64,000 nt of DNA from Scyliorhinus canicula. Lineage: Eukaryota. The notes beneath the pieces are model-generated. The model saw only the letters and a list, made by a program, of their open reading frames with translations, made no database searches and was not told the origin of the DNA. The stretch spans positions 167,008,410 through 167,072,409 of the forward strand of contig NC_052147.1 of the NCBI RefSeq assembly GCF_902713615.1, written 5' to 3'. This document shows, in pieces, positions 2,887-57,091 of this stretch (positions are counted from its first letter, which is position 1; each line of letters opens with the position of its first letter). The position numbers and the translations under genes were made by a program.

Positions 2887-5757
2887 ATGGGGAAGGCAAG
2901 GATAAATCAGTTTATGTATTGGATTGGAATTCTTATGCTGTGTTTGAAAAATTATTAATGAATAAACCTGTGACTTTTTCCACAGATCATCTTTTACGAG
3001 GACAGGAACTTCCAGGGTCGGCACTATGAGTGCAGCAGTGACTGTGCTGACCTGTCCCCTTACTTCAGCCGCTGTAACTCCGTCCGTGTTGAGAGTGACT
3101 GGTGGGTGATGTATGAGAAACCCAATTACATGGGATACCAGTATGTTCTGAGCAGGGGAGAATATCCTGACTACCAACGCTGGATGGGATTCAATGACAA
3201 CATCAGGTCATGTCGCTCCTACCCACATGTAAGTTGCCTTTGGTGGTTTGTATGTTCTAATCAAACTGACACTGAGAAAATGATCAGTGTGCTCAACATT
3301 TGAGTTTGTCTGAAATATACAGGTCTGATTTTAGCTTTAGGCAGTGGTGGTTAACAGGTAATGTGTTGTCTGCCTGCCACTTATCCAGCCTAATTTCCTA
3401 ATCTACTGATATGTCTTTCTGTCACTGCAGAAGTTAGTAACAGCTCCTGTAATTTTACAGCTGCTGTTAAGTTATGCAGTTTGGTTGTAAATCAATAGGT
3501 ACACAAACTGGGAAGTTAGTTGCAGGGAGTAAATAAAAGCAAAATACTTGGCATGCTGGAAATCTGAAATTGTCAGCATGGTTTTATGAAGGGTAAGTTG
3601 TGCTTGACAAAGTTCTTTGAAGATGTAACCAGCAAGTTAGATAATGGGGAGCTTGTGGATGTGGTATACCTAGGCTTCAAGAAGGCATTTGTGAAGCTGC
3701 CACATAATAGACTGATCCAGAAGGTGAGATCGCAGGGGATTGGGGATTGAGTACTAAATTGGATTGAGGATTGGCTGACTGACAGGAAGCAGAGGTTTGG
3801 GATAGATGGGTCCTTCTCTGGCTGGGAAACTGTAACTAGCGGGGTGCCACAGTTGAAGTCCTCTGACTTCAACTGTTTACAATCCATATAAATGATCTGC
3901 AAACATAGCAGAATTTGCAGATGATACTAAACTAGGTGGAAAGCAGATGGTGAAGAGAAGATAAAGAGTTCACAGACGAATAGATCGGCTAAGAGAATTA
4001 GCCAAAAATTGGCAGATGGAGTTTAACGTGGATAAGTGTGAGGGTATCCACTTTGGTTATGAAAATAGAAAGAAAAATTATTATCGAAATGGAAAGCAGA
4101 TTCAAAATGAATCTGGGCAGAAGGATCTGGGTGTCTTTGTTCATGAATCTCAGAAAGTCAGTATGCAGGTACAGCATGTAATAAAAACGGCAAATGGAAT
4201 TATAGCGTTTATTGCAACAGGACTGGAGTATAAAAATCGGGTGGTGTATTCCAATTGTATAGGGTGTTGGTGAGGATACACTTGGAGTATTGCATCCAAT
4301 TTTGGTCTCCTTATTTGAGGAAGGATGTGGGGGCATTGGAGGCTGTTCAGAAGAGTTTCACCATGTTGATTCCGGGGATGAAGAGGTTGACGTATGAGGA
4401 GAGGTTGAACAGTTTTGGCTTATAGTCGCTGGAGTTTAGAGAATGAGAGGAGAGCTGATTGAGGTATATAAAGTACTGAGAGGGAATGATAAAGTAAATG
4501 TAGACTAAATGTTCCCCCTTGTAGGGCAATCAAGAATGAGAGGTCACAGATATAGGTTGAGTGGCGGTAGATATAAAACTGAGATGAGGAGGAACTACTT
4601 CTCGCAGAAGGTGGTGAATTTGTGGAGCTTGCTGCCCCATAGTGCGGTGGAATCTGAATCATTAAATGGTTTCAAGAGGGATATAGATATATGAACATGG
4701 GGAACAGGCAGGGAGGTGGATTTGAGACCAGAAAGAGATCAGCCATAACCTGTTCAAGAGTGAGATAGGTATATGAAACCAAGATAGATATATTTCTGAT
4801 TTTAAAAATGGTTAAAGAGATATGGGGAACAGGCAGGGAGGTGGATTTGAGACCAGAAAGAGATCAGCCATGACCTGTTTGAATGGTGGAGCAGGCTCGA
4901 AGGGCTGAAATGCCTACTTATACTCCTCATTCCTATTTTCCTATAAAAACAGAAGAGCTGGAAATGCTTTGCAGGTCGGCTCGTATCTGTGAAGAGAGGA
5001 ACAAAGAAAAAGATTTTGATCATGCAGGATTCTTTTTCAGAACTTTTAGCTCTTGGTGTCTTATGATGACAGCTTGATGCAAAACATATGAATATTCAGG
5101 ATATAATTGTGAATGTTTATTTGCACTCAGATAGTCACCACTGAACACCAAGTTGGCACATTAACAGTGCAGAATGTAATAAAGTTATATATGGATAGTC
5201 ACAAAATGACTGGCTACAAAATATTTACAGATATATTTGTACTCACCTCATTTGTGTTCTTTTAATTTTAAATACTTTATAGGAAAGATAAATCTGCTCC
5301 CACTCAGAGAAACAGGCTCAAACATAATCAACCTATTGAATCAATGTTCATAAATTATCTCAGCTTTGCTCTCTTTGTTGTTGTCATCATCTGGGCTCCA
5401 TTCTACTCCTTCCTTTACAATGTTTCTGTTTTACGATACATAAAAAATGTATATTATAGTTTAATCTTATCTCTATCACAGTACCGAGATGGAAACTACA
5501 GAATGAAGATTTACGAGAGGCCTGACTTTGGAGGACAGATGATGGAATTCATGGATGACTGTCCATCTGTCTACGATCGTTTCCGTTACCGTGACATCCA
5601 CTCCTGCCATGTGATGGACGGTTACTGGACCTTCTATGAACATCCCAACTACAGAGGCCGACAGTACTTCATGAGACCCGGTGAATACAAGAGATACAGT
5701 GACTGGGGCGGCTACAACTCAACTATCGGATCTTTCAGACGCATGAGGGATTTCTAG
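2887..5757 (+). CDS. gamma-crystallin (gamma-S1-like), gene 1; join(2887..2895,2986..3228,5482..5757), 175 aa
   Basis: Exon 1 ATG GGG AAG, then a GC-AG intron (90 bp); 243-bp exon 2 [40 protein letters not shown]...; GT-AG intron 2; 276-bp exon 3 [23 protein letters not shown]...RRMRDF*. Four Greek-key motifs, typical gamma-crystallin exon layout, open frame. Confidence 0.96.
2986..3228 (+). CDS. gamma-crystallin gene 1 exon 2 (Greek keys 1-2)
   Basis: ttccacag|ATC...CAT|gtaagt, 81 codons. Confidence 0.96.
3571..4943 (+). mobile_element. 5'-truncated CR1 LINE in gene 1 intron 2, with a tandemly duplicated 3' end
   Basis: RT fragments ([23 protein letters not shown]) and CR1 3'UTR; splits an older repeat (3536-3570 / 4944-5045). 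Confidence 0.88.
5482..5757 (+). CDS. gamma-crystallin gene 1 exon 3 (Greek keys 3-4)
   Basis: tcacag|TAC...TTC TAG; 3' part of ORF 5344..5757. Confidence 0.96.
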
Positions 5758-9666: not shown

Positions 9667-10525
9667 GGGCGCGATTCTCCGCCCCCCACGACGGGTCGGA
9701 GAATAGCGGGAGGGCCTTCCCGACATTTTTCCCGCCCTCCCGCTATTCTCCCCCCCCCCCCCCCCGCCCAACTCCCGACACGAATCGCTGCCGCCGTTTT
9801 TTTACGGCCGGCAGCGATTCACAGCTGATACAGGGGCCGAAGTCCCAGCCCTTTACGCTGTTTTTACGAACGGCAAACACACCTGGTCTGGCCATTCGTA
9901 AAAACGGCGGGAACAACTCGCTTTTTATAACCATGGCACCGATTGGTACGGCAGTACCACGGCCGTGCCAAGGGTACCATGGGCCCGCGATCGGTGGGCA
10001 CCGATCGAATCCCCATTTCCCCATATCCCCATTCCCCCATATCCCCCTTCTCCATATCCCCCTTCCCCCAAATCCCCCATATCCCCCCTCTCCCCAAATC
10101 CCCCAAATCCCCCATATCCCCTTCCCCCATATCCCCCTTCCCTCATATCCCCATTCCACCATATTCCCCTTCCCCCATATCCCCTTCCCCCAAATCCCCC
10201 ATATCCCCTTCCCCCAAATCCCCCTTCCCTCATATCCCCATTCCCCCATATTCCCTTCCCCCATATCCCCCCTTCCCCCAAATCCACCATATCCCCTTCC
10301 CCATATCCCCCTTCCCCCATATCCCCCTTCCCCCAAATCCCCCATATCCCCCCTTCCCCCATATCCCCTTTCCCCCAAATCCCCCATATCCCCCTTCCCC
10401 CATATCCCCCCTTCCACCATATCCCTCTTCCCCTACCGTGGGATCGGCCCATTCACGCCGTCGTAAAACGCGATGGCGTTTCTGATGGCGTGGACACTCT
10501 GCCGCAGGATTAGAGAATCCTGCCC
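9667..10525. mobile_element. composite non-autonomous Harbinger containing a minisatellite
   Basis: GGGCGCGATTCTCC...AGAGAATCCTGCCC; no matching TSD. Confidence 0.7.
10010..10432 (+). repeat. C-rich minisatellite (CCCCATATCCCCCTT-like units)
   Basis: ~420 bp of C-tracts separated by ATAT, AAAT or TT; no G on the + strand. Confidence 0.95.
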
Positions 10526-10879: not shown

Positions 10880-13800
10880 AATTTGGCTTGTGGCAGAGGG
10901 TGAGAGAATCAACACGAGTTAAAAAGCTACTTGTCCTCATTCTAATCACTTTACCTGCACAGATGTCTCTGTCCATACTCCCCCTTCACACTGAGGACCT
11001 GGTCCAACTGTGTGGTGCAGTACTGCCCCAATGCTAAATGGGATGAACTCAGATAATTTCTTGTTATTCAAAATTGAGCATCCAGAAGGTGCCTTAGTGT
11101 GGTGAATGTATTCACCGAAGTATGCTGTCTGTATAGTGCTGTGACCTATGACCTTGTACTGGAACGCCGGTGGGCTCCACCTCTGGCTCCACCCTCACCG
11201 GGGCAATGTATAGACCGGCCACCTGTGGGTGGCACTCATTTGTACAGCCGACTCTGGCAGGCGGGTTCCTGGATGATAAAGCCTTATATTCACCCGTTCT
11301 CACGGTCTCATAGTGAATTAACGGTATAACAATTTATTATCCAGCGACAGCACCATGGAAGCCGCTCTCAAGCCAGATAAACTCGACGCGCGAGCAACAG
11401 AAGCCAAGGAGATCTTCAAACATTGGCTTCGTTGTTTCGAGGCCGACCTCAACTCCTCCGCAACGCCTCCCTCTGAAACCCTCATGCTGCGACTCCTTCA
11501 CGCACAGGTGAGCCATCGAATATTTGTGATGACAGAGAAAGCTGCCACGTACGAGGTGGCGGTCGCGACCCTCAAAGCGCATTTCGCGAAACCAGTAAAC
11601 GAGGTTTTCGCGTGACAACTCCTCACTACTCACCGTCAACGCATCAGGGAATCGCTGGACGAGTACCTGGAAAACCTGACCCTACTCGCGAGGAACTGCA
11701 ACTATCGGGATGTGACGGCGGAGGAGCACATGAAGCAACAGATCTGGGACACCTACGTGGCTGGGGTCCGATCGAACTATATCAGGCACGCCTGCTGGAA
11801 AACGGGACCACTGACCTGTGGGACATGGTAAAGCTAGCTATCTCGTTAGAGATGGCCTACCAGAGCCTCAGTGTGTTCCCCGCGGACCCGGCGAACCACT
11901 CGTGGACACCATCGTCGCGGCCCCTATAGGACCCGACTACATCACAGGCTTGTGCCGCGCAGCTGCCAGTCCAGACCAGGGAACCGCAGTGCTACTTCTG
12001 CGGCCAGGGTCAACACCCCCGGCAGTGTTGCCAGCCCGCACAGCAACGTGCAGCGACTGTGGCAAAAAGGGACACTTGGCCAGAGTCTGTCTGGGCCGAA
12101 CTAAAGCCCAGAAATCGAACACTCACCAGGCCGGACCCGTGGACTCACAGGCCCGCAGACCCTGCAATGTGGCTGAGTGCCAGCTGGGATTGCCCCCTTC
12201 AGACGCGTCATCAGCCGCGTGCGACTCGTGGGGGCTGCCATCTTGGCCGCCGGCTCCAACACCGACCGACACGTGCGTCCGATGGGGGCGGCTATCTTGG
12301 TCGCTATCTTCGACGCAGCCCACCAAGTGCGACTCATGTGGGCCGCCATTTTGTGGTACCGCCGACCACACAGACCCCGCAGTTTGGTGCAGTCACCCAC
12401 AACTAGTCGCAGCCAAAGCACCTGAAAAATTCCATGATGGTCGTCCGGGTCAAAGGGCACGAGACCCCTGTCTTTTCGACCCCGGGAGCACGGAAAGCTT
12501 TGTTCACCCTGACACGGTAGGGCGTTGCTCCCTTCACATATACCCCACATCCCAAACAATCTCATTTGCTTCCGGATCCCATTCGGTCCAGATCCGGGGT
12601 TACTGTATCGCTAACCTCACGATGCAGGGCGCCGAGTACTCCCGTTTTAAGCTGTACGTCCTCCCTCACCTCTGCGCCCCCCTACTGCTTGGATTAGACT
12701 TCCAATGCAGTCACCGAAGCCTGACCCTACAGTTCAGCGGACCCTTACCCCCACCCTCACGGTATGCAGCCTCGCGACTCTCAAGGTCTTCCCCCCCATT
12801 CGCTCTTTGTGAACCTCACTCCCGACTGTAAGCCCATCACCACCAGGAGCAGGCGGTACAGTTCCCAAGACATGATTTTTATCAAGTCGGAGGTCCAGCG
12901 ACTGTTGGGTGAAGGGATCATCGAGGCCAGCAACAGCCCCTGGCGAGCGCAAATGGTGGTCGTCCGGACCGGGGAAAAGAATCGGATGGTTGTGGACTAC
13001 AGCCAAACGATTAACCGGTTCACGCAAGTGGATGCGTACCCCCTCCCCCGCATAGCGGAGATGATCAACCAGATCGCACAGTACCAGGTGTTCTCAACGG
13101 TCAATCTGAAGGCGGCCGACCACCAGCTCCCGATCCACCCGGAAGAGTGCCACTACACTGCCTTCGAAGCAGCCGGCCGGCCCTTCCACTTCCTCAGGGT
13201 CCTTTCGGCGTCACTAACGGGGTCCCGGTTTTCCAGAGAACGATGGACTTAATGGTGGACCAATACGGGTAGCGGACTACATACCCGTACTGGGACAATG
13301 TTACCATCTGCGGCCATGATCAGCAGGACCATGACGCCAACTTCCAGAGGTTCCTCCAGGCCGCCCAATCCCTCAATCTCACATATAACAAAGAGAAGTG
13401 CGTTTTCTGCACTACCCGACTGGCCATCCTCGGTTACGTCGTGGAGAACAGGGTCCTAGGGCCCGACTCCGACCGTATGCGCCCTCTCACGGAACTTCCC
13501 CCTCCCCACAGCCTCAGGGCCCTCAAACGATGCCTGCGGCTGTCCTCCTGCTATGCCCAGTGGGTCCCCAACTATGCGGACAAAGCCCGCCCACTTATCA
13601 AAATCACCACATTTCCCCTGACAGCTGAGGCCCGCTCGGTCTTCAGCTGCATCAAGGCCGACATTACTAAGGCCGCAATGCACGCGGTGGATGAGTCCGT
13701 CCCCTTCCAGGTAGAGAGCGATGTGTCAGATGTCGCCCTGGCCACCACCCTCGACCAGACGGGCAGGTCGGTAGCCACTTTCTCTAGAACTCTCCACGGT

Positions 13801-15720
13801 CCGAAATCTGAGACGCCTCGGTCAAGAAGGAAGCACAAGCCATAGTGGAAGCCGTGCGGCACTGGAGGCACTACCTAGCCGGTAGGAGGTTCACCCTCGT
13901 CACCGACAAACGGTCGGTAGCCTTTATGTTTGACAACGCACAACGGGGAAAAATTAAGAATGACAAAATCTTGAGGTGGAGGATCAAACTCTCCACCTAC
14001 AATTACGATATCAAATATCGTCCTGGGAAGCTTAATGAGCCCCCAGATGCCCTGTCCCACGGCACATGCGCCAGCGCGCAAGATAGCCGACTTCGGGCTA
14101 TCCACAATGACCTCTGTCACCCAGGGGTCACTCGGCTTATCCACTTTATTAAGGCCCACAATCTGCCCTACTCCACTGAAGAGGTCAAGGCCATGACCAG
14201 GGACTGCCAAGTCTGCGCGGAGTGCAAACCGCACTTCTACCAGCCAGACAAGGCCCACCTGGTTAAGGCCTCGCAGCCCTTTCCACGCCTCAGTATTGAC
14301 TTCAAAGGGCCCCTCCCCTCCACCAACCATAACGTATATTTCCTCACCATCATCAATGAGTACACCCCCTTCCCCTTCGCTGTCCCCTGCCCCGACATGA
14401 TCTTTGCCATGGTCATAAAGGCACTGCACAGCATCTTCACACTGTTCGGTTTCCCTGCGTACATCCACAGCGACTGGGGCACATCGTTCATGAGTGATGA
14501 GCTGCGTCAGTACCTGCTCAGTAATGGCATCGCCTCAAGCAGGACTACGAGCTATAACCCGCAGGGAAACGGGCAGGTGGAGAGGGAGAACGCGACGGTA
14601 TGGAAGGCCGTCCTTCTGACCCTCTGTTCTAGAAGTCTCCCGAACCCTGCTGGCAGGAGGTCCTCCCCGACGCCCTCCACTCCATCAGATCGCTCCTCTG
14701 CACAGCCACGAATGACATCCCTCACGACCGTTTGTTTGTCTTCCCCAGGAAGTCCATCTCTGGGGTCTCACTTCCATCTTGGCTGACAACTCCTGGACCT
14801 GTCCTTCTATGGAGGCATATGAGGAGTCATAAAACCGTTCCCCTGGTCGAGAGGGTCGAGCTGCTGCACGCCAACCCCCAATACGCCTACATCGCGCACC
14901 ACGATGGATGGCAAGATACGGTCTTCCTACGGGACCTGGTGCCAGCTGGTTCGCCTGCCAACGCGCCCCCCTCCCCGTTGCCTACCGCCACCCACAGCGT
15001 CTCTTATGCCCCCTGTGTCTCCTGTACTGTCCCGAGCCTGCACTGCCACCACCCACAATCCCTCTGCCTACCCCCTCATCCGTCTCCGACACGCCGGACT
15101 AAAGCTCAAGCTCCAGACAACATGCCCCCGGAGTCGCCACCTGCAACAACCGTGCCTGCTGCATTGCCAGAGCTGAGGATGTCTAAAAGAACGACCCAGC
15201 CTCTGGACAGACTGAATATTTGACGACCCCACATCACCCCCGCTGGACTTGATTTTTTAAAAAGGGGGTGAATGTGGTGAATGTATTCACATAAGCATGC
15301 TGTCTGTATAGCGCTGTGACTATGACCTTGTACTGGAATCCTGGTGGGCTCCGCCTCTTGCTCCGCCCTCACTGGGGCGATATATAGTCCGGCCACCTGT
15401 GGGTGGCACTCATTTGTACAGCCGACTCTGGCAGGCGGGTTCCTGGATAATAAAGCGATATATTCACTCGTTCTCACGGTCTCATAGTGAATTGACGGTA
15501 TAACACTTAGGCCAATAGCAATAGCAGAATTGCATTCAACCACAATCTGCAAACTCACAGCCCGACATATCACTCCTCCTTTCATTCGAGGATCAGGGAA
15601 ACAACCTGGCTTCAAATCAGCATGCAGGACAGCAGCAGCACCAGACATTTCATCCTACTCAAACCGCAACAAAAGACTGCATGCATGCCTGAGAACAAAC
15701 TAGAGCAGTGCTGCTCCCTC
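10880..15720 (+). mobile_element. ancient LINE ORF2 fragment (10880-11097 and 15511-15720) split by the Gypsy insertion
   Basis: The two flanks join across the TSD into continuous degraded LINE-like coding sequence. Confidence 0.45.
11098..15505 (+). mobile_element. full-length decayed Ty3/Gypsy LTR retrotransposon (4408 bp), TSD CTTAG
   Basis: LTRs 11098-11331 and 15273-15505 (TG...CA, about 20 differences), polypurine tract 15259-15272; gag from 11355 with knuckle CSDCGKKGHLARVC, protease FDPGSTESF, RT (SPWRAQMVVV, DAYPLP), RNase H, integrase (CHPG..CQVC, IDFKGP, GNGQVER) in Gypsy order; frameshifts and stops. Confidence 0.96.
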
Positions 15721-20382: not shown

Positions 20383-21639
20383 TTCTTTGGCCAGGATGGT
20401 GTGTGTGGGGAGTGAAGTATGTGTATGCAGCTGCAGCTTGTCAATTGTGAACCGGGGGAATCCCGCACCATATTTCATTGGAATCGATTGTGTTCTGGCT
20501 TCACGGGTGCTGGCTTCTTTTTTTTTTAAATTTAGAATATCCAATTCATTTTTTCCAATTAAGGGGCAATTTAACGTGGCCAATCCACCTAACCTGCACA
20601 TCTTTGGGTTGTGGGGGTGAAACCCATGCAGACACGGGGCGAATGTGAAAACTCCTCACAGACAGTGACCCAGGGCCGGGATTCGAACCCGGGTCCTCAG
20701 CACCGTAGGCAGCAATGCTAACCACTGTGCCACCGTGCCGCCCTCGGTGCTGGCTTCTTAATCGTCGTTGAATCGGTCCAGGTGCAGCGCCAGTTTGCTG
20801 TCGGAGAAGTGGTGATAAGTCTATGGCTATATTATAGTTGGATGGTGTGGGACCTCCAACCAGAAGGTGGTGGTACAGACACACCTTGAGGTCTCTAGAC
20901 CAAGGTCATGTGACCTGTGATTCGGATATAAAGGGAGACACACCCGTCCATCTTCAGAAGAAGATTGAATGGGCAATAAGACATACATGTGAATGGTCAG
21001 TGCTCAGTACAAGTTCCAGAGGAGTAGTTAGCAGACTCCCATGACAATGTACTCTGTATCAGATTGCTATCTTACCAGAGGAGACTCAGTAAAAGATCCT
21101 GGTTTGGACCAGTCGAGGTGTTTGGTGAGTTCCTTCATAAAGTACAAAGGGTCAAACACAACATGGTACCACGAGTGCTGAAGATTTAAAGATAGCGACG
21201 GCAGTGATAACATTAGGCACTCGGCATGAAGACCGGCCTCGTGAACTGCAGCCTGAGGCGATCCAACACATAATAAAATGCTGAAGCTCGAAATGGATGG
21301 ACTAAGGGCCTCCCACCAGCTTCAGATGTCTGTAGGTGAGAACTGGCGGCTGTGCACACAGCAGATTGAACTTTATGTTTCGGCCGTGAGTCTGCAGGCC
21401 CGGCCTGATGAAAGGCGAATCGCGTTGCAGTCCACAAGCACTCGAACTGTACAACGTGTTTGTGTTTGATAATGGAATAGATCACAAGGAATTTGATGAA
21501 GCACTTCGATAAGCATTGTTTCCCTCAGATTAATGAAAAGTTTGAGCGCTATATGTTCTGAATGCGTACCCAGAGACCTGGCGAATCATTTGACAGTTTT
21601 GTCACAGACTTGAGGCTGAAGACCCAGTCATGCAACTTC

Positions 21640-25180: not shown

Positions 25181-25531
25181 TACATAGATTACATAGAATT
25201 TACAGTGCAGAAGGAGGCCATTCGGCCCATCGAGTCTGCACCGGCTCTTGGAAAGAGCACCCTACCCCCTATCCAAGGTCAACACCTCCACCCCATCCCC
25301 ATCACCCAGTAACCCCACCCAACACTAAGGGCAACCTTGGATACCAAGGGCAATTTATCATGGCCAATCCACCTAACCCGCACATCTTTGGACCGGAGCA
25401 CCCGGAGGAAACCCACGCACACACGGGGAGGATGTGCAGACTCCGCACAGACAGTGACCCAAGTCGGAATCGAACCTGGGACCCTGGAGCTGTGAAGCGA
25501 TTGTGCTATCCACAAGGCTACCGTGCTGCCC
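25181..25531 (-). mobile_element. HE1/V-SINE
   Basis: Full head-core-tail on the minus strand. Confidence 0.85.
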
Positions 25532-30566: not shown

Positions 30567-33500
30567 ATGGGAAAGGTAAGGTTAACTCTCGTATTTTTCA
30601 CCTTATCAATAATTGGTTGGAAAATACAAGTATTTCATTTCATCTTCTTTCCTCACAGGTTATCTTTTACGAGGACAGGAACTTCCAGGGTCGGCACTAT
30701 GAGTGCAGCAGTGACTGTGCTGACCTGTCCCCTTACTTCAGCCGCTGTAACTCCATCCGTGTTGAGAGTGACTGGTGGGTGATGTATGAGAAACCCAATT
30801 ACATGGGATACCAGTATGTTCTGAGCAGGGGAGAATATCCTGACTACCAGCGCTGGATGGGATTCAATGACAACATCAGGTCATGTCGCTCCTACCCACA
30901 CGTGAGTAATTGTCTTGATAGGCATATATTTGTGAATTGTTTTTCGTTTGAAATGGTCTGTTTATCTATTTGAAAGTGAAAAGTGAAAGTGAAAATCGCT
31001 TATTGTCACGAGTAGGCTTCAAATGAAGTTACTGTGAAAAGCCCCTAGTCACCACATTCCGGCGCCCGTTCGGGGAGGCTGTTATGGGAATAAATTAAAA
31101 GTTCACCTTATTTTTCATCCCCTCTTTCTTTAACAGATTCTTTCATCAATAATCTGAATTTTAAGTTGAAATCAAAATCATTGTTTTTTATAAATTTAGT
31201 ATACCCAATTAATGTTTTCCAAATAAGGGGCAATTTAGTGTGGCCAATTCACCTACCCTGCACATCTTTTGGGTTGTGGGGTCGAAACCCACGCAAACAC
31301 GGGGAGAATGTGCAAACTCCACACGGACAGTGACCCAGAGCCGGGGCCAAACCTGGGACCTCGGCGCCGTGAGGCTGCAGAGCTAACCCACTGCGCCACC
31401 GTGCTGCCCCTGAAATCAAAATCATAAGCTACAATTGTCGGTTTGCCTTCATTCAGGAATCGTCTCAGCATTGTCCGAATTGATCATTGTAACTTTGATG
31501 GAAATCGGTGAAAAGGCTGGGTACACCGATTGGGGCTGGAAGGCAAGGATTGGTTGGCAATTGGAATTTTGACAGTCTTCCTCAGAAGTTATGGTGATCA
31601 ATCAGGACAATTTCTGAACAAGCTCCTCGTGAAATATCACTTTGGTGTAGAAAGAATAACAATTGCCAGGACACTCTAGAAAGCCAGCACTAAAAAGGTT
31701 TGAGAAAACTGGCTGAAATTAGTTCAGCTGCCAACATAGGTATTGATACGGCTGATACCACTTGTTAAGTACCCCACCAGGAAACATAGGAGAAAAATCC
31801 ACAGGCATTCTTCTATTTCTCTCCCAGTTGATGTATCCAAGAGCAGTCAAATGGGCCCTCTTGGAGGAACTGCAATATACATAACGGATGAAAATACAAA
31901 TTGTTTCAAAATTGAGAGTTGAGTTTAAATCTTGGAATTATGGTTACAAAACCAAACTATGATAAGTAATCATCTTCCCCTCTCCCAAGTCCTTGGGGAC
32001 AAGAGGTAACCCATGTCTTCAACTGTTGTTTTACCAGCAGAAGAAACATTGGATTTTCTTTTTTACGGAAGATGACCTTTACGTGGTTGTATCATTAGCT
32101 TAACTAGGGCTGGGAGACCGTTTACATGCAACGGAGAGTTGACACTTCATGGTAGAGGAACAGGTATGATGGACAGAAAGAAACTAATTCTGCTGGTTGG
32201 GAAGTTTAGCAAGCATATTGTAAAAATTAGAGCTGGATCTTTCAGAAGTGAATGCAGGAAAAACTTTGACGTGCAAAGAGTAATAGATGTTTGGGATTCT
32301 ATTATGAAAATGACAATCAATGCCAAAACAATTGTCAAGTTGTAAACCAAAGATATGCCATAAATGATATGGGGTGAAAATACATGGAGACAGGTCACAG
32401 ATCAACCATGAACTCAAAATAATGGTGGAACAGACTCAAGGGACAAAGCAGCTAATTCCTCGTCATATCATAGAATCATATAGTCCCTACAGTGCAGAAG
32501 GAAGCCATTCAGCCCATTGAGTCTGCGTTGACCCTCCAAAAGAGCACCCTATCTAGGCCCACACCCCTGCCATATCCCCGTAACACTATATAACATTTGG
32601 ACACTAAGGGGCAATTTAGCATGGCCAATCCACCTAACCTTCACATCTTTGGACAGTGGGAGGAAGCCTGAGTACCCAGAGGAAACCCATGCAGACACGG
32701 GGAGAACGTGCAATCTCCACACATGCCTCTATTCCCATCAAATGCAAGTACTCAGTTGAATCGCAAATTGATATTCAAAGGCTAAATTCTTGTTGCCATT
32801 CCCCAGGGCTTTCTGGAGTGGGACTCCAATCTCAAACCTTCCAGCTCATAGTTTTGAACAGTAATAACTTTGACCATATTGAGAAAACGGTACAATTGTG
32901 ATTGCTGAATATCAGATAACCAAACAAAAATATTGGAAATGTGCAACAGGTCAGAGAACATCTGGAAGCAGAAAAGGCAGGTTAATATTTTGGCTGGAGA
33001 ATTTTCATCAAAGCTGCCAATTAATATTACAACCATCACAAGATGATATTACAAACTGTTGAAGTAATCAAAAAATAATTTTCTTCAGAGTTGTGTAGAC
33101 ATACTTCTACCGAGGGCTGGTTTAGCTCAGTTGGCTGGATGGCTGGCTGATGATACAGAGTGAGGCCAACAGTGTGGGTCCAATTCCCATACCAGCTGAG
33201 GTTATTCATGAAGGTCCTGCCTTCTCAACCTTGCCCCTCGCCTGAGGTGTGGTGCTGATCAGGTTAAATCACCACCAGTCAGCTCTCCCCCTCAAAGGGA
33301 TAAGCAGCCTCTAGTCATGTGGGACTATGGCGGCTTTACTTTATTTCTATCTCTCTGCCAAATGTTTAATTTATTTCTCTCACAGTACCGAGGTGGAAAC
33401 TACAGAATGAGGATTTACGAGAGGCCTGACTTTGGAGGACAGATGATGGAATTCATGGATGACTGTCCATCTGTCTACGATCGTTTCCGTTACCGTGACA

Positions 33501-33661
33501 TCCACTCCTGCCATGTGATGGATGGTTACTGGACCTTCTATGAACATCCCAACTACAGAGGCCGACAGTACTTCATGAGACCCGGTGAATACAAGAGATA
33601 CAGTGACTGGGGCGGCTACAACTCAACTATCGGATCTTTCAGGCGCATGAGAGATTTCTAG
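30567..33661 (+). CDS. gamma-crystallin (gamma-S1-like), gene 2; join(30567..30575,30659..30901,33386..33661), 175 aa
   Basis: ATG GGA AAG|gtaagg, 83-bp intron, exon 2 [11 protein letters not shown]...SYPH|gtgagt, exon 3 [16 protein letters not shown]...RRMRDF*; intact frame. Confidence 0.97.
30659..30901 (+). CDS. gamma-crystallin gene 2 exon 2
   Basis: ctcacag|GTT...CAC|gtgagt, 243 bp. Confidence 0.96.
31185..31410 (-). mobile_element. short V-SINE variant in gene 2 intron 2 (same type at 20519-20743, 42957-43180, 58838-59065)
   Basis: tRNA head, V core, A-rich tail. Confidence 0.85.
32130..32722. mobile_element. CR1 3' end (+) followed by HE1 SINE (-) in gene 2 intron 2
   Basis: [18 protein letters not shown] motif; SINE tail and core. 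Confidence 0.7.
33112..33346 (+). mobile_element. tRNA-derived SINE (non-V type) just upstream of gene 2 exon 3
   Basis: gggctggtttagctcagttgg head; its 3' half recurs at 40240-40373. Confidence 0.7.
33386..33661 (+). CDS. gamma-crystallin gene 2 exon 3
   Basis: ctcacag|TAC...TAG, 276 bp. Confidence 0.96.
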
Positions 33662-52371: not shown

Positions 52372-55300
52372 ATGGGAAAGGCAAGAATAAATCAGAGTTT
52401 ATATATTGCACTTTCCATTCAGCATCTCCTGATATGATAAATTATTAATTTCCAGCTTTGTCTCTTTCCACAGATTATCTTTTACGAGGACAGGAACTTC
52501 AAGGGTCGGCACTATGAGTGCAGCAGTGACTGTGCTGACCTGTCCCCTTACTTCAGCCGCTGTAACTCCATGCGTGTCATGAGTGACTGGTGGGTGATGT
52601 ATGAGAGACCCAATTACATGGGATACCAGTATGCTCTGAGCAGGGGAGAATATCCTGACTACCAGCGCTGGATGGGATTCAATGATAGCATTGGCTCATG
52701 TCGCTCCTACCCATATGTAAGTTATATTTTTTATGAAAACTGAGACTTGGTAAAGTGACAAGGCCATGAATGCCATATTTGTGACACTTGAAACGCCTCA
52801 CAAGTTTTGAAGAAATCTCGCAAGACGTTGCGATCTGGAACTCATCCTCCCTGGGCGATATCCAAATGGACATATTTAAGTCAGCCATTAGTTTCATTTA
52901 AATATGCCTGCGCCGGATTCTTCCAGGGCCCAGGAAATCATGGCCCCACCTGGGAGACCTCGCCCTGACACTGTTCAGCACTGGTTTCCACAAACATAGA
53001 CGAGGTGTAACAGTACTTCGGGGTTCTCCCAGTCCTTTAGAGACCCCTGGGCTGTCAGGCTCTGATCAGGGTGGTACCCTCGCACTCCCGCTGACAACTG
53101 GGCACCTTGACACTGCCAGCCTCCCACCTTGGCAATGGCACCCGGGCAGGGTGTCTGGGGGACACTGCCAGTCTGGCAGGGGCACTGCCATTGTTCCAGG
53201 CTGGCAGTACCAAGGTGAGCATATGCCAGGTTTCCCATGCCATGGATCGTGCCCGGGGGTGCCTTGTCCTTAGAGGTGGGGTGAGGGGGTCTTGAGGATC
53301 CTGTAAGAGGTACATTTGATGCAGTGAGAGGAGGGGGATCTGGAGGCCACAGTGGGGTGGCTGAGAAGGTGTCAAAAGAGTGGTATTTAAAAATGGTGCC
53401 CAGATCCGTGAATATGGTAGTGCGGCCTTGGCGGGTTGTTCCCCGCAGAGGTAACAAAAAATGGCAAAGGGCCGTTAAATAGCAATGTCGAACCCGGTGC
53501 TGCAGGTGCTAATAAATACCCCACTAAATGTGCCCAAAATGGCACTCTGTCTCGTTATGTCAGGCTTTAGATAATGATCAGTGTACTGAACATTTGACTT
53601 TGTGCACATCAGCTCTGATGAGCCATCAAGCTGTTTTGACAGGACTGATTTTAACTTTGGTCAGTGGGTGGTTAACAGGTAGTGAATTGTCTGCCTATCA
53701 AACAAGCAGCCTGATTTACCAATCCATTGGCAAGTCTTTCTGTTTGCATTGTCGGGGCATTTTCAGAGACTTGAGTATTGAGCTGGCTTTTACGTGGGGA
53801 ATTTTCCCCATCTAATTGCGGTTCAGCGAACAAAAAGACTCATGGAGACAACTCTGGTTAAGACGGCTTTACTTTGTAAGCTTGGTTTAAAGTACAAGGG
53901 AGAGTCGTTTAGATAAATGGCAAAACCATTCTGTCTTACATTGCTTCAGATTCAACAGTTATACAATTTCCAATAATCAGTAGTCCACCCCAGCCTGACT
54001 TGATCCAATCCGTGTAGCTGTAGATTTTACCTTGACCAATGAAATTTACTTTTGGCAGCATGGTGACTGCATGATCAGCTTGTGATATAGTTATGTCCTA
54101 TCCACTGGCCATCTGTTGTTTTTCAAGACCCTCGCAGCCGCTGTCTCTTGCTCTCCCGTACTCCCATTCCCCTTATCTTAGTGTAGAATCGGCTCACAAC
54201 ATTGCCAGTTTGAGCACAAGATGCTGGAGTTGTTGGAGAGAACTGCTTATTGAGTTGGCTGTGTTATTGCTGGCCACATTATTTCTCTCTGATTCTGTCT
54301 GTCTTAGGTCAAGTTAGCCAGCTTAGATCCCAACATACATTGTGAGCACTACTATCAGCAAGAGTTTAAATGCTTAAAATCATAGAATTTATAGTGCAGA
54401 AGGAGTCCATTCAGGCCATCAAGTCTGCACCGGCTCTTGGAAAGAGCACCCTACTTAAGCCCACACCTCCACCCTATCCCATAACCCAGCAACCCCACCT
54501 AACCTAAGGGTAATTTAGCATGGCCAATCCACCTAACCTGCACATCTTTGGACTGTGGGAGGAAACCGGAGCACCCAGGGGAAACCCACGCAGACACGAG
54601 GAGAACCTGCAGACTCCGCACAGACAGTGACCCTCGCTGGCAATCGAACCTGGGACCCTGACGCTGTGAAGCAACTATGCTAACCACTGTGCTACCGTGC
54701 TGCCTGAGAAAATAGCTTGTTCCTGCTATTTGCCAAGAATACATGTTTAATGTTTAATAATGATTACTGGATATAATTTCTATTTTCTAGTTACTTTCTA
54801 GTTTCAATCCTCAAAGAAACAAACTTTGTAGAGCTTATGTAGAGCTATTCCAGTGTTATCCGGTTTGAAGGGGTATCATCCCAGCACCCCGCCCCCCCAA
54901 CCCCTTAAAATACCAGCTCTTGTAATTTTGTAGGTGCTGTTATACAGATTGGTTCTTAAATCAAAAGCTTTAGGTGTCACGTGACAACGTTCAAGATTAC
55001 CTGAGGTACAATTGGATGCATTTATTTGTATTTAATTGGATACCATAATCGTATAAAAGTTGAACCTTTGAGACCCTTTTATGGTCAGAAATAAGGTGTT
55101 AACCTTGACACAGTGATGTTTCTGCTGGGCTTACTTTTAACCAGCAATGGTCGTGGCTCACAGAGCCAGCAGGAATCGTGCAGCTTTTCACGCTTTCAGT
55201 TTTCGATGCTCTCAGCTGATATGGAAGTGGACTGGAGCCAGAACGGAGGTCAGAAAGTTAGATTTCTGTCATCCCTTTTCTTTCCCTATGGGGTAATAGG

Positions 55301-57091
55301 ACTTTTCATGAAAGCTCAGGGAGCTGAGTTCCATTTTTGGTTAAGTTCTCGATATGTTCTAGGCTCACACACACACACTGTGGACACTGACTCTGCAGTT
55401 TGTTCTCATCTTACCTCCATCATTTCAATGAGAAATTAAACTTTCACTCACTCAAGTTCCCCGATATCTCAGTGGGCAAATTGCACTCTGTGATCTAGTA
55501 CCGATGTTGAGAGAACTGATAACACTTGCTTCAGTCCTGGTCTCTGCTGTGTTACTCTGAGCACAGAGTGGAAGAATGAGCTGAGTCAGAGCCGAGGGTC
55601 ATTGGAAACTCGGGGCTCACCTTTTACACAAGGTATATCGAAAACGTAAGGAGTTCTTGACCAATGATTGTGGCTGGCTTTTACACGATATGGAGTACTT
55701 CTCAAGCATTGACAGTGTAGATATTACGGGCGGCACAGTGATTAGTATTGCTGCCTTTGAGGCTCCCAGATTCGATCCCAACCTCAGGTGACTGTGTGAA
55801 GTTTCCACATTCTTCCCGTGTCTGCGTGCTTTCCTCCGGGTGCTCCAGTTGCCTCCTACGGTCCATAGATGTGCAGGTTTGGTACATTGGATATGCTAAA
55901 TTATCCCTAGGTGGGGTTACAGGGCTAGGGTGGGGGATTGCACCTAGGTTAGGGTGCTCTTTCAGAGGGTCGATGCAGACTCCATGGGTCTTCATCTGTG
56001 CTGTAGGGATTCTATGATTCTATTCAATAAGGTCGTCTACAGGTGGACTAAATGACTACAGCCTGCTGTCAGACATATTTACACTCATCAAATTCATCTT
56101 GCTTCAATTGTTTAACACATTCTAGGAAAGAGAAAGCTGTCCCCACACAGAGAAACAGAGAAACAATCTGATCAACAATAGGAACCAGAAATACAGATTT
56201 TTACTGAGATAAACCTCTGTCTGTGTGCACCAACTAATATCAGTCCCCTGTGCACTCTTATACACACATCACTGATTAACTGTTTAAAATTATACATATG
56301 GGGCGGTACGGTGGCACAGTGGTTAGCACTGGTGCCTCACAGAGCCAGGGACCTGGGTTCATTTCCGGCTTTTGGTGACTGTGTGGAGTTTGCACATTCG
56401 CTCCGTGTTTGTGTCGGTTTACTCCGGGTGCTCCGGTTTCCTCCCACAGTCCAAAGATGTACAGGTTAGGTGGATTGGCCTTGATAAATTGCCCCTTAGG
56501 ATGGGGTTGCAGGTTCGGACAGGAATTGGGCTGAGGTAGGATGGTCTTTTGAAGGGTCGGTGCAGGCTCAATGAGCCGGATAGCCTCCTTCTGCAGTGTA
56601 GGGATTCTATGATTCTATAGGAGCTACTTGTTGGTATCAAATCAGAAACATAGTCAACTTATTGAATTGAGTAAATTATCTGAGCTTTGCTCCCATTGCT
56701 GATGTCATCATCTGGGCTCCGTTATATTGCTTCCTTTTCAATGTATCTCTTTTTCTACATATAACAAATGGATATTTATTATTTAATCACTAATATAATC
56801 TTATTTCTATTACAGTACCGAGGTGGAAACTACAGAATGAGGCTTTACGAGAGACCTGACTTTGGAGGACAGATGATGGAATTCATGGATGACTGTCCAT
56901 CTGTCTACGATCGTTTCCGTTACCGTGACATCCACTCCAGCCATGTGATGGACGGTTACTGGACCTTCTATGAACATCCCAACTACAGAGGCCGACAGTA
57001 CTTCATGAGACCCGGTGAATACAGGAGATACAGTGACTGGGGCGGCTACAACTCAACTATCGGATCTTTCAGACGCATGAGGGATTTCTAA
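52372..57091 (+). CDS. gamma-crystallin (gamma-S1-like), gene 3; join(52372..52380,52474..52716,56816..57091), 175 aa
   Basis: ATG GGA AAG|gcaaga (GC donor), 93-bp intron, exon 2 [11 protein letters not shown]...[10 protein letters not shown]...[11 protein letters not shown]|gtaagt, exon 3 [14 protein letters not shown]...RRMRDF*; intact frame. Confidence 0.96.
52474..52716 (+). CDS. gamma-crystallin gene 3 exon 2 (absent from the ORF track)
   Basis: ttccacag|ATT...TAT|gtaagt, 243 bp, translated by hand. Confidence 0.95.
52760..53550. mobile_element. non-autonomous Harbinger relic in gene 3 intron 2
   Basis: GGCACTGCCA repeats resembling 38197-39099; absent from the homologous gene 1 intron. 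Confidence 0.55.
53750..54335. mobile_element. solo LTR in gene 3 intron 2, TSD TGCAT/TACAT
   Basis: TGTCGGG...CCCAACA termini. Confidence 0.7.
54380..54704 (-). mobile_element. HE1/V-SINE (further + strand copies at 55729-56022 and 56300-56618)
   Basis: Full head-core-tail. Confidence 0.85.
56816..57091 (+). CDS. gamma-crystallin gene 3 exon 3
   Basis: ttacag|TAC...TAA, 276 bp. Confidence 0.96.

Follow-up and report, generated by a model that had tools for sequence, protein, structure and literature searches.

The window analysed here, a stretch of 64,000 nucleotides of the Scyliorhinus canicula genome (NC_052147.1, positions 167,008,410 to 167,072,409), contains at 11098-15505 a dead, decayed copy of a Ty3/gypsy retrotransposon without env. 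The copy shows TG...CA long terminal repeats (LTRs), a target duplication, a polypurine tract and the domain order protease-RT-RNase H-integrase, all of them features of the Ty3/gypsy group. Its best relative of solved structure was the Ty3 Gag-Pol, and the closest named proteins were those of rays and catsharks. The gag-pol region is broken by several stops and frame changes, and the two LTRs differ by 19 mismatches and 1 gap across 233 alignment columns. The features of the element are as follows:

11093..11097, + strand: target-site duplication CTTAG, left copy (identical 5-mer at 15506-15510)
11098..11331, + strand: 5' LTR, TG...CA, 234 bp, aligned to the 3' LTR
11207..11238, + strand: TATA-like box to an initiator-like A at 11238, the predicted transcription start (sequence and spacing)
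11269..11280, + strand: LTR arm, 3' end of the predicted self-primer, ending in a poly(A) hexamer mutated here to GATAAA
11281..11284, + strand: RCC motif directly 3' of the arm, where cleavage is predicted and a short second helix begins (family counts)
11332, + strand: one-base spacer (A) from the LTR end to the primer-binding site (LTR-pair alignments of 11 loci, 6 foreign families)
11333..11344, + strand: putative primer-binding site (PBS), complement of the LTR arm (pairing and co-change)
11355..15223, + strand: broken gag-pol with Gag (two zinc-knuckle-like motifs), protease, RT, RNase H and integrase
15259..15272, + strand: polypurine tract (sequence)
15273..15505, + strand: 3' LTR, 233 bp, with intact arm and AATAAA at 15443-15454
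15506..15510, + strand: target-site duplication CTTAG, right copy, matching the left copy

The TATA-like box is mutated in the 5' LTR of the window and intact in its 3' LTR counterpart at 15381; a spacing of 30-34 nt between this box and the initiator is common to the sister families. Just upstream of the arm there is a splice-donor-like CAG/GYRAGT motif (window 11255-11266; L002-L030), through which an effect of U1 on the poly(A) signal is possible. A primer made by splicing was considered and was not needed, because the unspliced LTR contains the arm without interruption in 29/29 families.

Other repeats were seen in the window. Some 650 bp upstream of the element, at 10002-10441, there is a tandem repeat of short period. 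Copies of two young repeat families, 260-300 bp long and 93-97% identical, occur at 5457-5756, 33361-33660 and 56791-57090, and at 2974-3234, 30647-30907 and 52462-52722. A short interspersed repeat, which we take to be an HE1-type SINE of cartilaginous fish, is present in many copies (20528-20737, 25189-25513, 54378-54699 and others).

Pairing of the leader with the LTR arm

The leader TTTATTATCCAG occupies 11333-11344, one base (A at 11332) behind the CA that ends the 5' LTR at 11331. The first-pass annotation of this DNA had described it as the exact reverse complement of the 3' LTR at 15443-15454 and had noticed that no TGG follows the 5' LTR of the window, and both observations were confirmed. 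It had also reported 12/12 pairing with the 5' LTR arm at 11269-11280, including one G-U. The pairing was seen again, but the G-U proved to be private decay of this copy: among the family copies retrieved by a genome search (2,123 candidates, 40 scored, 30 retrieved), AATAAA was found in the 5' LTR of 29/30, so that the G at 11275 is a mutation of the window copy, the family helix is 12/12 Watson-Crick and the G-U pair is without meaning. When positions of the window were sampled, a complement of at least 11/12 located 10-110 nt upstream was found at 15 of 6,387 (0.23%). Folding of the 141-nt leader/LTR region gave a z of -2.4.

Two genome searches with divergent Gag queries yielded 60 further S. 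canicula loci (30 of 150 matches in each search). These loci are sister families, in which both arm and leader differ from those of the window and still pair, the changes including AATAAA/TTTATT to ATTAAA/TTTAAT. Among the 90 S. canicula loci the number of pairs was 12/12 in 44, 11 in 33, 10 in 8, 9 in 4 and 8 in 1; at least 11/12 was thus found in 77/90. In the sister families L031-L090, the LTR end plus the spacer form a perfect small hairpin, TTGATG-N4-CATCAA, which overlaps the first base of the PBS and may stack on the main helix or compete with it.

Using a 31-protein alignment of the clade as query, we found 515 relatives in metagenome contigs, and 80 of them were kept; 5 more were found in contigs of metagenome-assembled genomes (MAGs). 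The gag start plus upstream DNA was available in 49 of these 85 relatives, and 37 of the 49 paired 11 or 12/12 in the same register. The 12 loci below 11/12 comprised copies whose LTR end is mutated (L117, L133), two at 10/12 and contigs with little or no LTR, and as far as seen they are decayed, truncated or misassembled. In L115 the 3' LTR end (about 4040-4053) is also followed by an 11-nt PBS and then by unrelated sequence. The contigs filed under bacterial MAGs that carry elements of the clade (L171-L175) are probably bin contamination. Named homologues of the RNase H-integrase region came from shrimp, leafhopper, stick insect, snail, mussel, gorgonian, hydra, sea anemone and liver fluke, and polyproteins across the clade are 35-52% identical.

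Co-change was evaluated at positions 5-12 with one representative for each of 29 families (22 foreign and 7 own-genome), all of them carrying different leaders. Cognate leader/arm pairs gave 228/232 Watson-Crick cells, non-cognate pairs averaged 3.9 of 8, and the best of 100,000 permutations reached 150 cells; because the 29 families were picked among helix-bearing loci and are partly related, not all being independent, this figure shows co-change and not prevalence. Relatedness does not account for the co-change, since L098, L105 and L111 have nearly the same RT and different helices in which both arms changed together, and L107 and L108 differ by a single compensated base. The compensatory changes that the first-pass annotation had proposed to look for were therefore found, confirming that the leader-LTR pairing is real and under selection.

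Probable self-priming and the predicted length of the primer

None of the 29 leaders has a TGG within its first 13 nt. Many copies are young, with LTR pairs 99-100% identical, which implies that some primer must exist and that these elements replicate without a PBS for a tRNA end. Taking together the pairing, the co-change, the fixed position, the lack of TGG, a second helix and reverse-copy junctions, we consider it quite probable that the leader 12-mer is the primer-binding site of a self-primed Ty3/gypsy lineage.

According to the mechanism that we propose, transcription would start at 11238, about 30 nt upstream of the arm, and the leader at 11333-11344 would pair with the arm at 11269-11280 in the element's own LTR. 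The RNase H of the element would cut the RNA between 11280 and 11281, right after the arm, and the capped 5' piece left as primer would be about 43 nt long here and 43-57 nt long in sister families. The reverse transcriptase would extend the cut end into minus strong-stop DNA, with 11332 back to 11281 as template. Plus-strand synthesis would then copy the primer end and the PBS would be rewritten from the LTR arm in every round, which would explain the fast, wobble-free co-change.

In order to find traces of such primers, the genome was searched for LTR ends followed by a leader that runs on as the reverse complement of the LTR. We examined 100 distinct loci; 13 listed matches were left out (7 duplicates, 5 of ambiguous class and 1 remaining), and three uninformative classes were set aside, namely U5 inversions between the two arms, LTRs in which the arm is followed by a short minus-strand insert, and deletions ambiguous through the palindromic LTR end. 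Their own arm was kept by 46/100 loci, and the TATA box and initiator were found by rule in 30, which gave 27 events after merging three pairs with shared junctions. Six of the 27 extend far into U3. In the 21 terminating events, scored with an initiator rule that was fixed only after family C had been inspected, 8 ends lay within 4 nt of the predicted +1 (P ~0.008) and 3 exactly on it (P ~0.005), both for uniform ends from -39 to +20. The ends track the arm-to-start distance in the 43-, 54- and 57-nt subfamilies, and 5/21 lie 3-19 nt beyond +1. For families A and B it had been predicted beforehand that the fossil copies would stop near 43 nt, and this prediction failed (31 nt; 37, 50, 59 and 74 nt).

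The events deep in U3 and the ends past +1 suggest that DNA fold-back makes such junctions too, and copying of a second intact RNA would also yield ends at +1. There is thus moderate support for an RNA start 30-45 nt before the arm with the whole piece attached to the cDNA. The position of the fossil ends near the predicted start suggests that the primer is probably the 43-57-nt 5' piece ending in the hexamer, and not a Tf1-like 11-mer. The first-pass annotation had held that a start near 11269 would indicate priming and a start farther upstream occlusion of the poly(A) signal; this distinction was not borne out, because the predicted start is at 11238 and the fossil junctions suggest that a longer piece was copied.

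In L188, L244/L245, L271 and L274 the normal leader resumes after the copied stretch. A reverse copy of the RNA 5' piece after the LTR was seen in L244/L245, L177/L267, L181/L276 and L271; three such junctions are each present in two copies, suggesting that the derivatives may have been mobilised again. Among the loci set aside, 8-25 nt of minus-strand U5 directly follow the arm in L178, L182, L192, L206, L207, L212, L216, L220, L223 and others. These inserts recur in at least 3 families and resemble a primer-to-cDNA joint followed by a template switch; DNA-level switching also fits.

Self-priming by some other piece is unlikely, whether this be the arm on another RNA packaged together with the first, the arm in the 3' R copy, or a short Tf1-like primer from a start at the arm itself. 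The 3' LTR arm is equally complementary to the leader, the whole U3 is present in the copied strand at many junction loci, and the start site is a predicted one: four raw RNA-read runs compared with the window 5' LTR and a sister LTR showed no pile-ups of starts or ends (3 reads had an A-rich loose end behind 11293, too weak to place a poly(A) site). However, the fossil ends pile up at the initiator at TATA+31 and not at the 5' edge of the arm, own-genome families lack a TATA box at 30 nt before the arm, and the short stacked helix described below suits local folding.

Priming versus occlusion of the poly(A) signal

The first-pass annotation had suggested that one helix could act as self-primer, as silencer of the AAUAAA of the 5' LTR, or as both. 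A helix that mainly hides the 5' poly(A) signal, with priming by something else, agrees with the 19/29 arms that end in AATAAA or ATTAAA, with a helix that is possible at the 5' end only, and with a predicted start upstream of the arm. The polyA hairpin of HIV-1, a virus with a tRNA PBS, is a local structure found at the two ends of the RNA; the window helix, unlike this hairpin, has its partner strand outside the LTR, at the PBS position. The likeness between the two is an RNA structure over AAUAAA, for which HIV-1 gives a precedent of regulated polyadenylation (PMC2645353).

Against a helix of this kind, 10/29 arms lack a canonical hexamer, and the canonical hexamer lies outside the helix in L105 and L111 (downstream) and in L092 (far upstream). 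Some of the 10 non-canonical arm ends are presumably weak variants of the poly(A) hexamer. The LTR-pair alignments stop one base before the leader in 11 loci of 6 foreign families, and the loop of the helix varies from 21 to 66 nt across the 29 families while the position of the leader is fixed, which argues for a primer-site requirement, since an occluding helix needs no such offset. Occlusion would also leave the near-absence of G-U pairs and the lack of any other PBS unexplained. The arms without canonical hexamer, the fixed leader position and the lack of TGG together favour priming, and we consider occlusion as the main role improbable. Occlusion may contribute to the selection, given the 19/29 arms with AATAAA or ATTAAA at their end, and hiding of the 5' poly(A) signal would be no more than a plausible side benefit of the priming helix.

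A second helix was found next to the main one. The RCC motif directly follows the arm in 24/29 families, and a 4-bp partner for the RCC-side segment was present in 20 of these 24 (4.5 expected). The helix begins exactly at the 3' edge of the arm, with a summed stem length of 120 compared with at most 100 in 500 shuffles; in the window's own family it has 3 bp only, its partner being a downstream GGY. It tolerates G-U, which occupies the first pair in 12/29 families, whereas the 348 cells of the main helix comprised 342 Watson-Crick pairs, 5 mismatches and 1 G-U. This contrast in wobble pairs agrees with copying of the PBS from the primer in each round.

Binding of the leader to an internal tRNA fragment or another host small RNA, the LTR match being secondary, is very improbable. 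Half-tRNA priming exists in copia lineages (PMC6317226, PMC10886601, as described in their available parts), and our comparison covered just 11 distinct host tRNA sequences (20 of 63 tRNA matches retrieved), in which the best complement to any of 7 own-genome leaders was at most 6 nt. There was no Rfam match in window 11050-11450 at E up to 1, and a plant survey, in its accessible part, reports half-tRNA use only for copia (PMC6317226). Moreover, each of the 29 different leaders matches its own LTR, which leaves little room for this interpretation. Chance or a neutral fold-back duplication can practically be dismissed: 12-mer complements do lie near 0.23% of window positions and fold-back events do occur in the family, but the compensatory conservation across so divergent a clade and the permutation test refute it.

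Lineage and comparison with known self-primed elements

In a quick RT tree of 94 rows, without a named chromovirus, the window element belonged to a clade of 46 rows with a long stem (SH-aLRT 100), which was apart from Mag-like, Gmr1-like and other gypsy rows. Full-length relatives have a compact single ORF of about 1,200-1,250 aa with a double zinc knuckle. No chromodomain was present in the integrase tail of the window copy, in agreement with the first-pass annotation, and neither the chromodomain (PF00385) nor the Tf2-type SH3 (PF24626) was found in the window copy or in any of 11/11 full-length relatives at E up to 0.1. When chromoviruses were searched for in S. canicula, PF24626 led to elements with the integrase before RT (Gmr1-type), and the chromodomains seen were those of the host, 0/20 chromodomain loci being near a retrotransposon pol. 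An abundant Gypsy family of this Gmr1 type was observed in the genome (L296-L325). The viral contigs searched contained no relative.

The size of the window clade resembles that of Cigr-1 of Ciona intestinalis: with a single ORF of about 1,210 aa and LTRs of about 245 bp, Cigr-1 would belong to the same size class. Cigr-1 represents a small non-Mag Gypsy clade also found in molluscs, according to the part available of PMC6238403. Motif searches aimed at naming the clade returned nothing from the accessible parts of the papers or supplements of PMC6238403, PMC8556966 and PMC13524379.

The self-primer of Tf1 is an 11-mer; the primer predicted for the window clade is about four times longer. Self-priming with RNase H cleavage is a known route in Tf1 and Tf2 of Schizosaccharomyces pombe, Tj1 and Tosmo1-3, in the available parts of the sources (PMC7175516, PMC4600332, PMC10085805). 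As in the Tf1/sushi group, as these sources present it, the window element is a Ty3/gypsy element with a putative PBS right after the 5' LTR, complementary to its own R region and independent of tRNA. Tf1 also has an extra duplex beside the central one (PMC10085805, available part), and the window clade has its short stacked helix. In contrast to the three-duplex pretzel of Tf1, the window clade shows the central duplex and one stacked helix; the full pretzel was not found, the two further Tf1-type duplexes (arm-downstream with LTR end, leader-downstream with U5) giving no family-specific pairing. Tf1/sushi is a chromodomain group, whereas the window clade lacks the chromodomain. The Tf1/sushi self-primer is the very 5' end of the RNA; in the window clade the TATA/initiator spacing and the fossil ends point to a start 30-45 nt upstream of the arm. 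The element may work like Tf1 but, as it failed the chromodomain test, we did not file it in Tf1/sushi.

Self-priming has also been predicted, from complementarity between PBS and LTR, for the plant elements Tcn1 (Ty3/gypsy) and TAR (Ty1/copia: Houba, Osr-1) in the part seen of PMC6317226. They differ from the window clade in lineage and host, Tcn1 grouping with Tf1/sushi and TAR being copia; the self-priming of TAR in copia suggests that this mode of priming arose more than once. In the portions available to us, the literature ties self-priming to Tf1/sushi, Tcn1 and copia TAR, and we found in it no description of self-priming in a non-chromodomain animal gypsy clade (PMC6934838, PMC6317226, PMC4600332, PMC7175516, PMC10085805, PMC3601003, PMC5006619, PMC10886601, PMC13524379, PMC3587641, PMC6238403, PMC5341516, PMC3670739); older primary literature may hold an earlier mention.

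Implications

We give about an even chance to the complete proposal, that is, a widespread animal Ty3/gypsy lineage with self-priming that evolved separately from Tf1/sushi, in which RNase H cuts the RNA 43-57 nt from its capped start and exactly behind the poly(A) hexamer, the helix serves both as primer and in silencing the 5' poly(A) signal, and the PBS is rewritten in each round. To the known systems this study adds the stacked second helix, the contrast in wobble pairs and, as a likely feature, the long primer with its internal cut. To our knowledge, tRNA-free priming has been proven only for the fission-yeast Tf1 and has been tied to chromoviruses. If the proposal is true, tRNA-free priming would have been invented repeatedly, in animals by a second, non-chromodomain lineage that has named relatives in cartilaginous fish, crustaceans, insects, molluscs, cnidarians and flatworms. 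The 29 different primer/PBS pairs would then be a natural series for studying how RNase H chooses its cut in an RNA duplex, and the fossil junctions offer a sequence-only readout of primer length and start site. Annotation tools requiring a tRNA PBS would overlook such elements, and the elements themselves would presumably escape control by tRNA 3' fragments.
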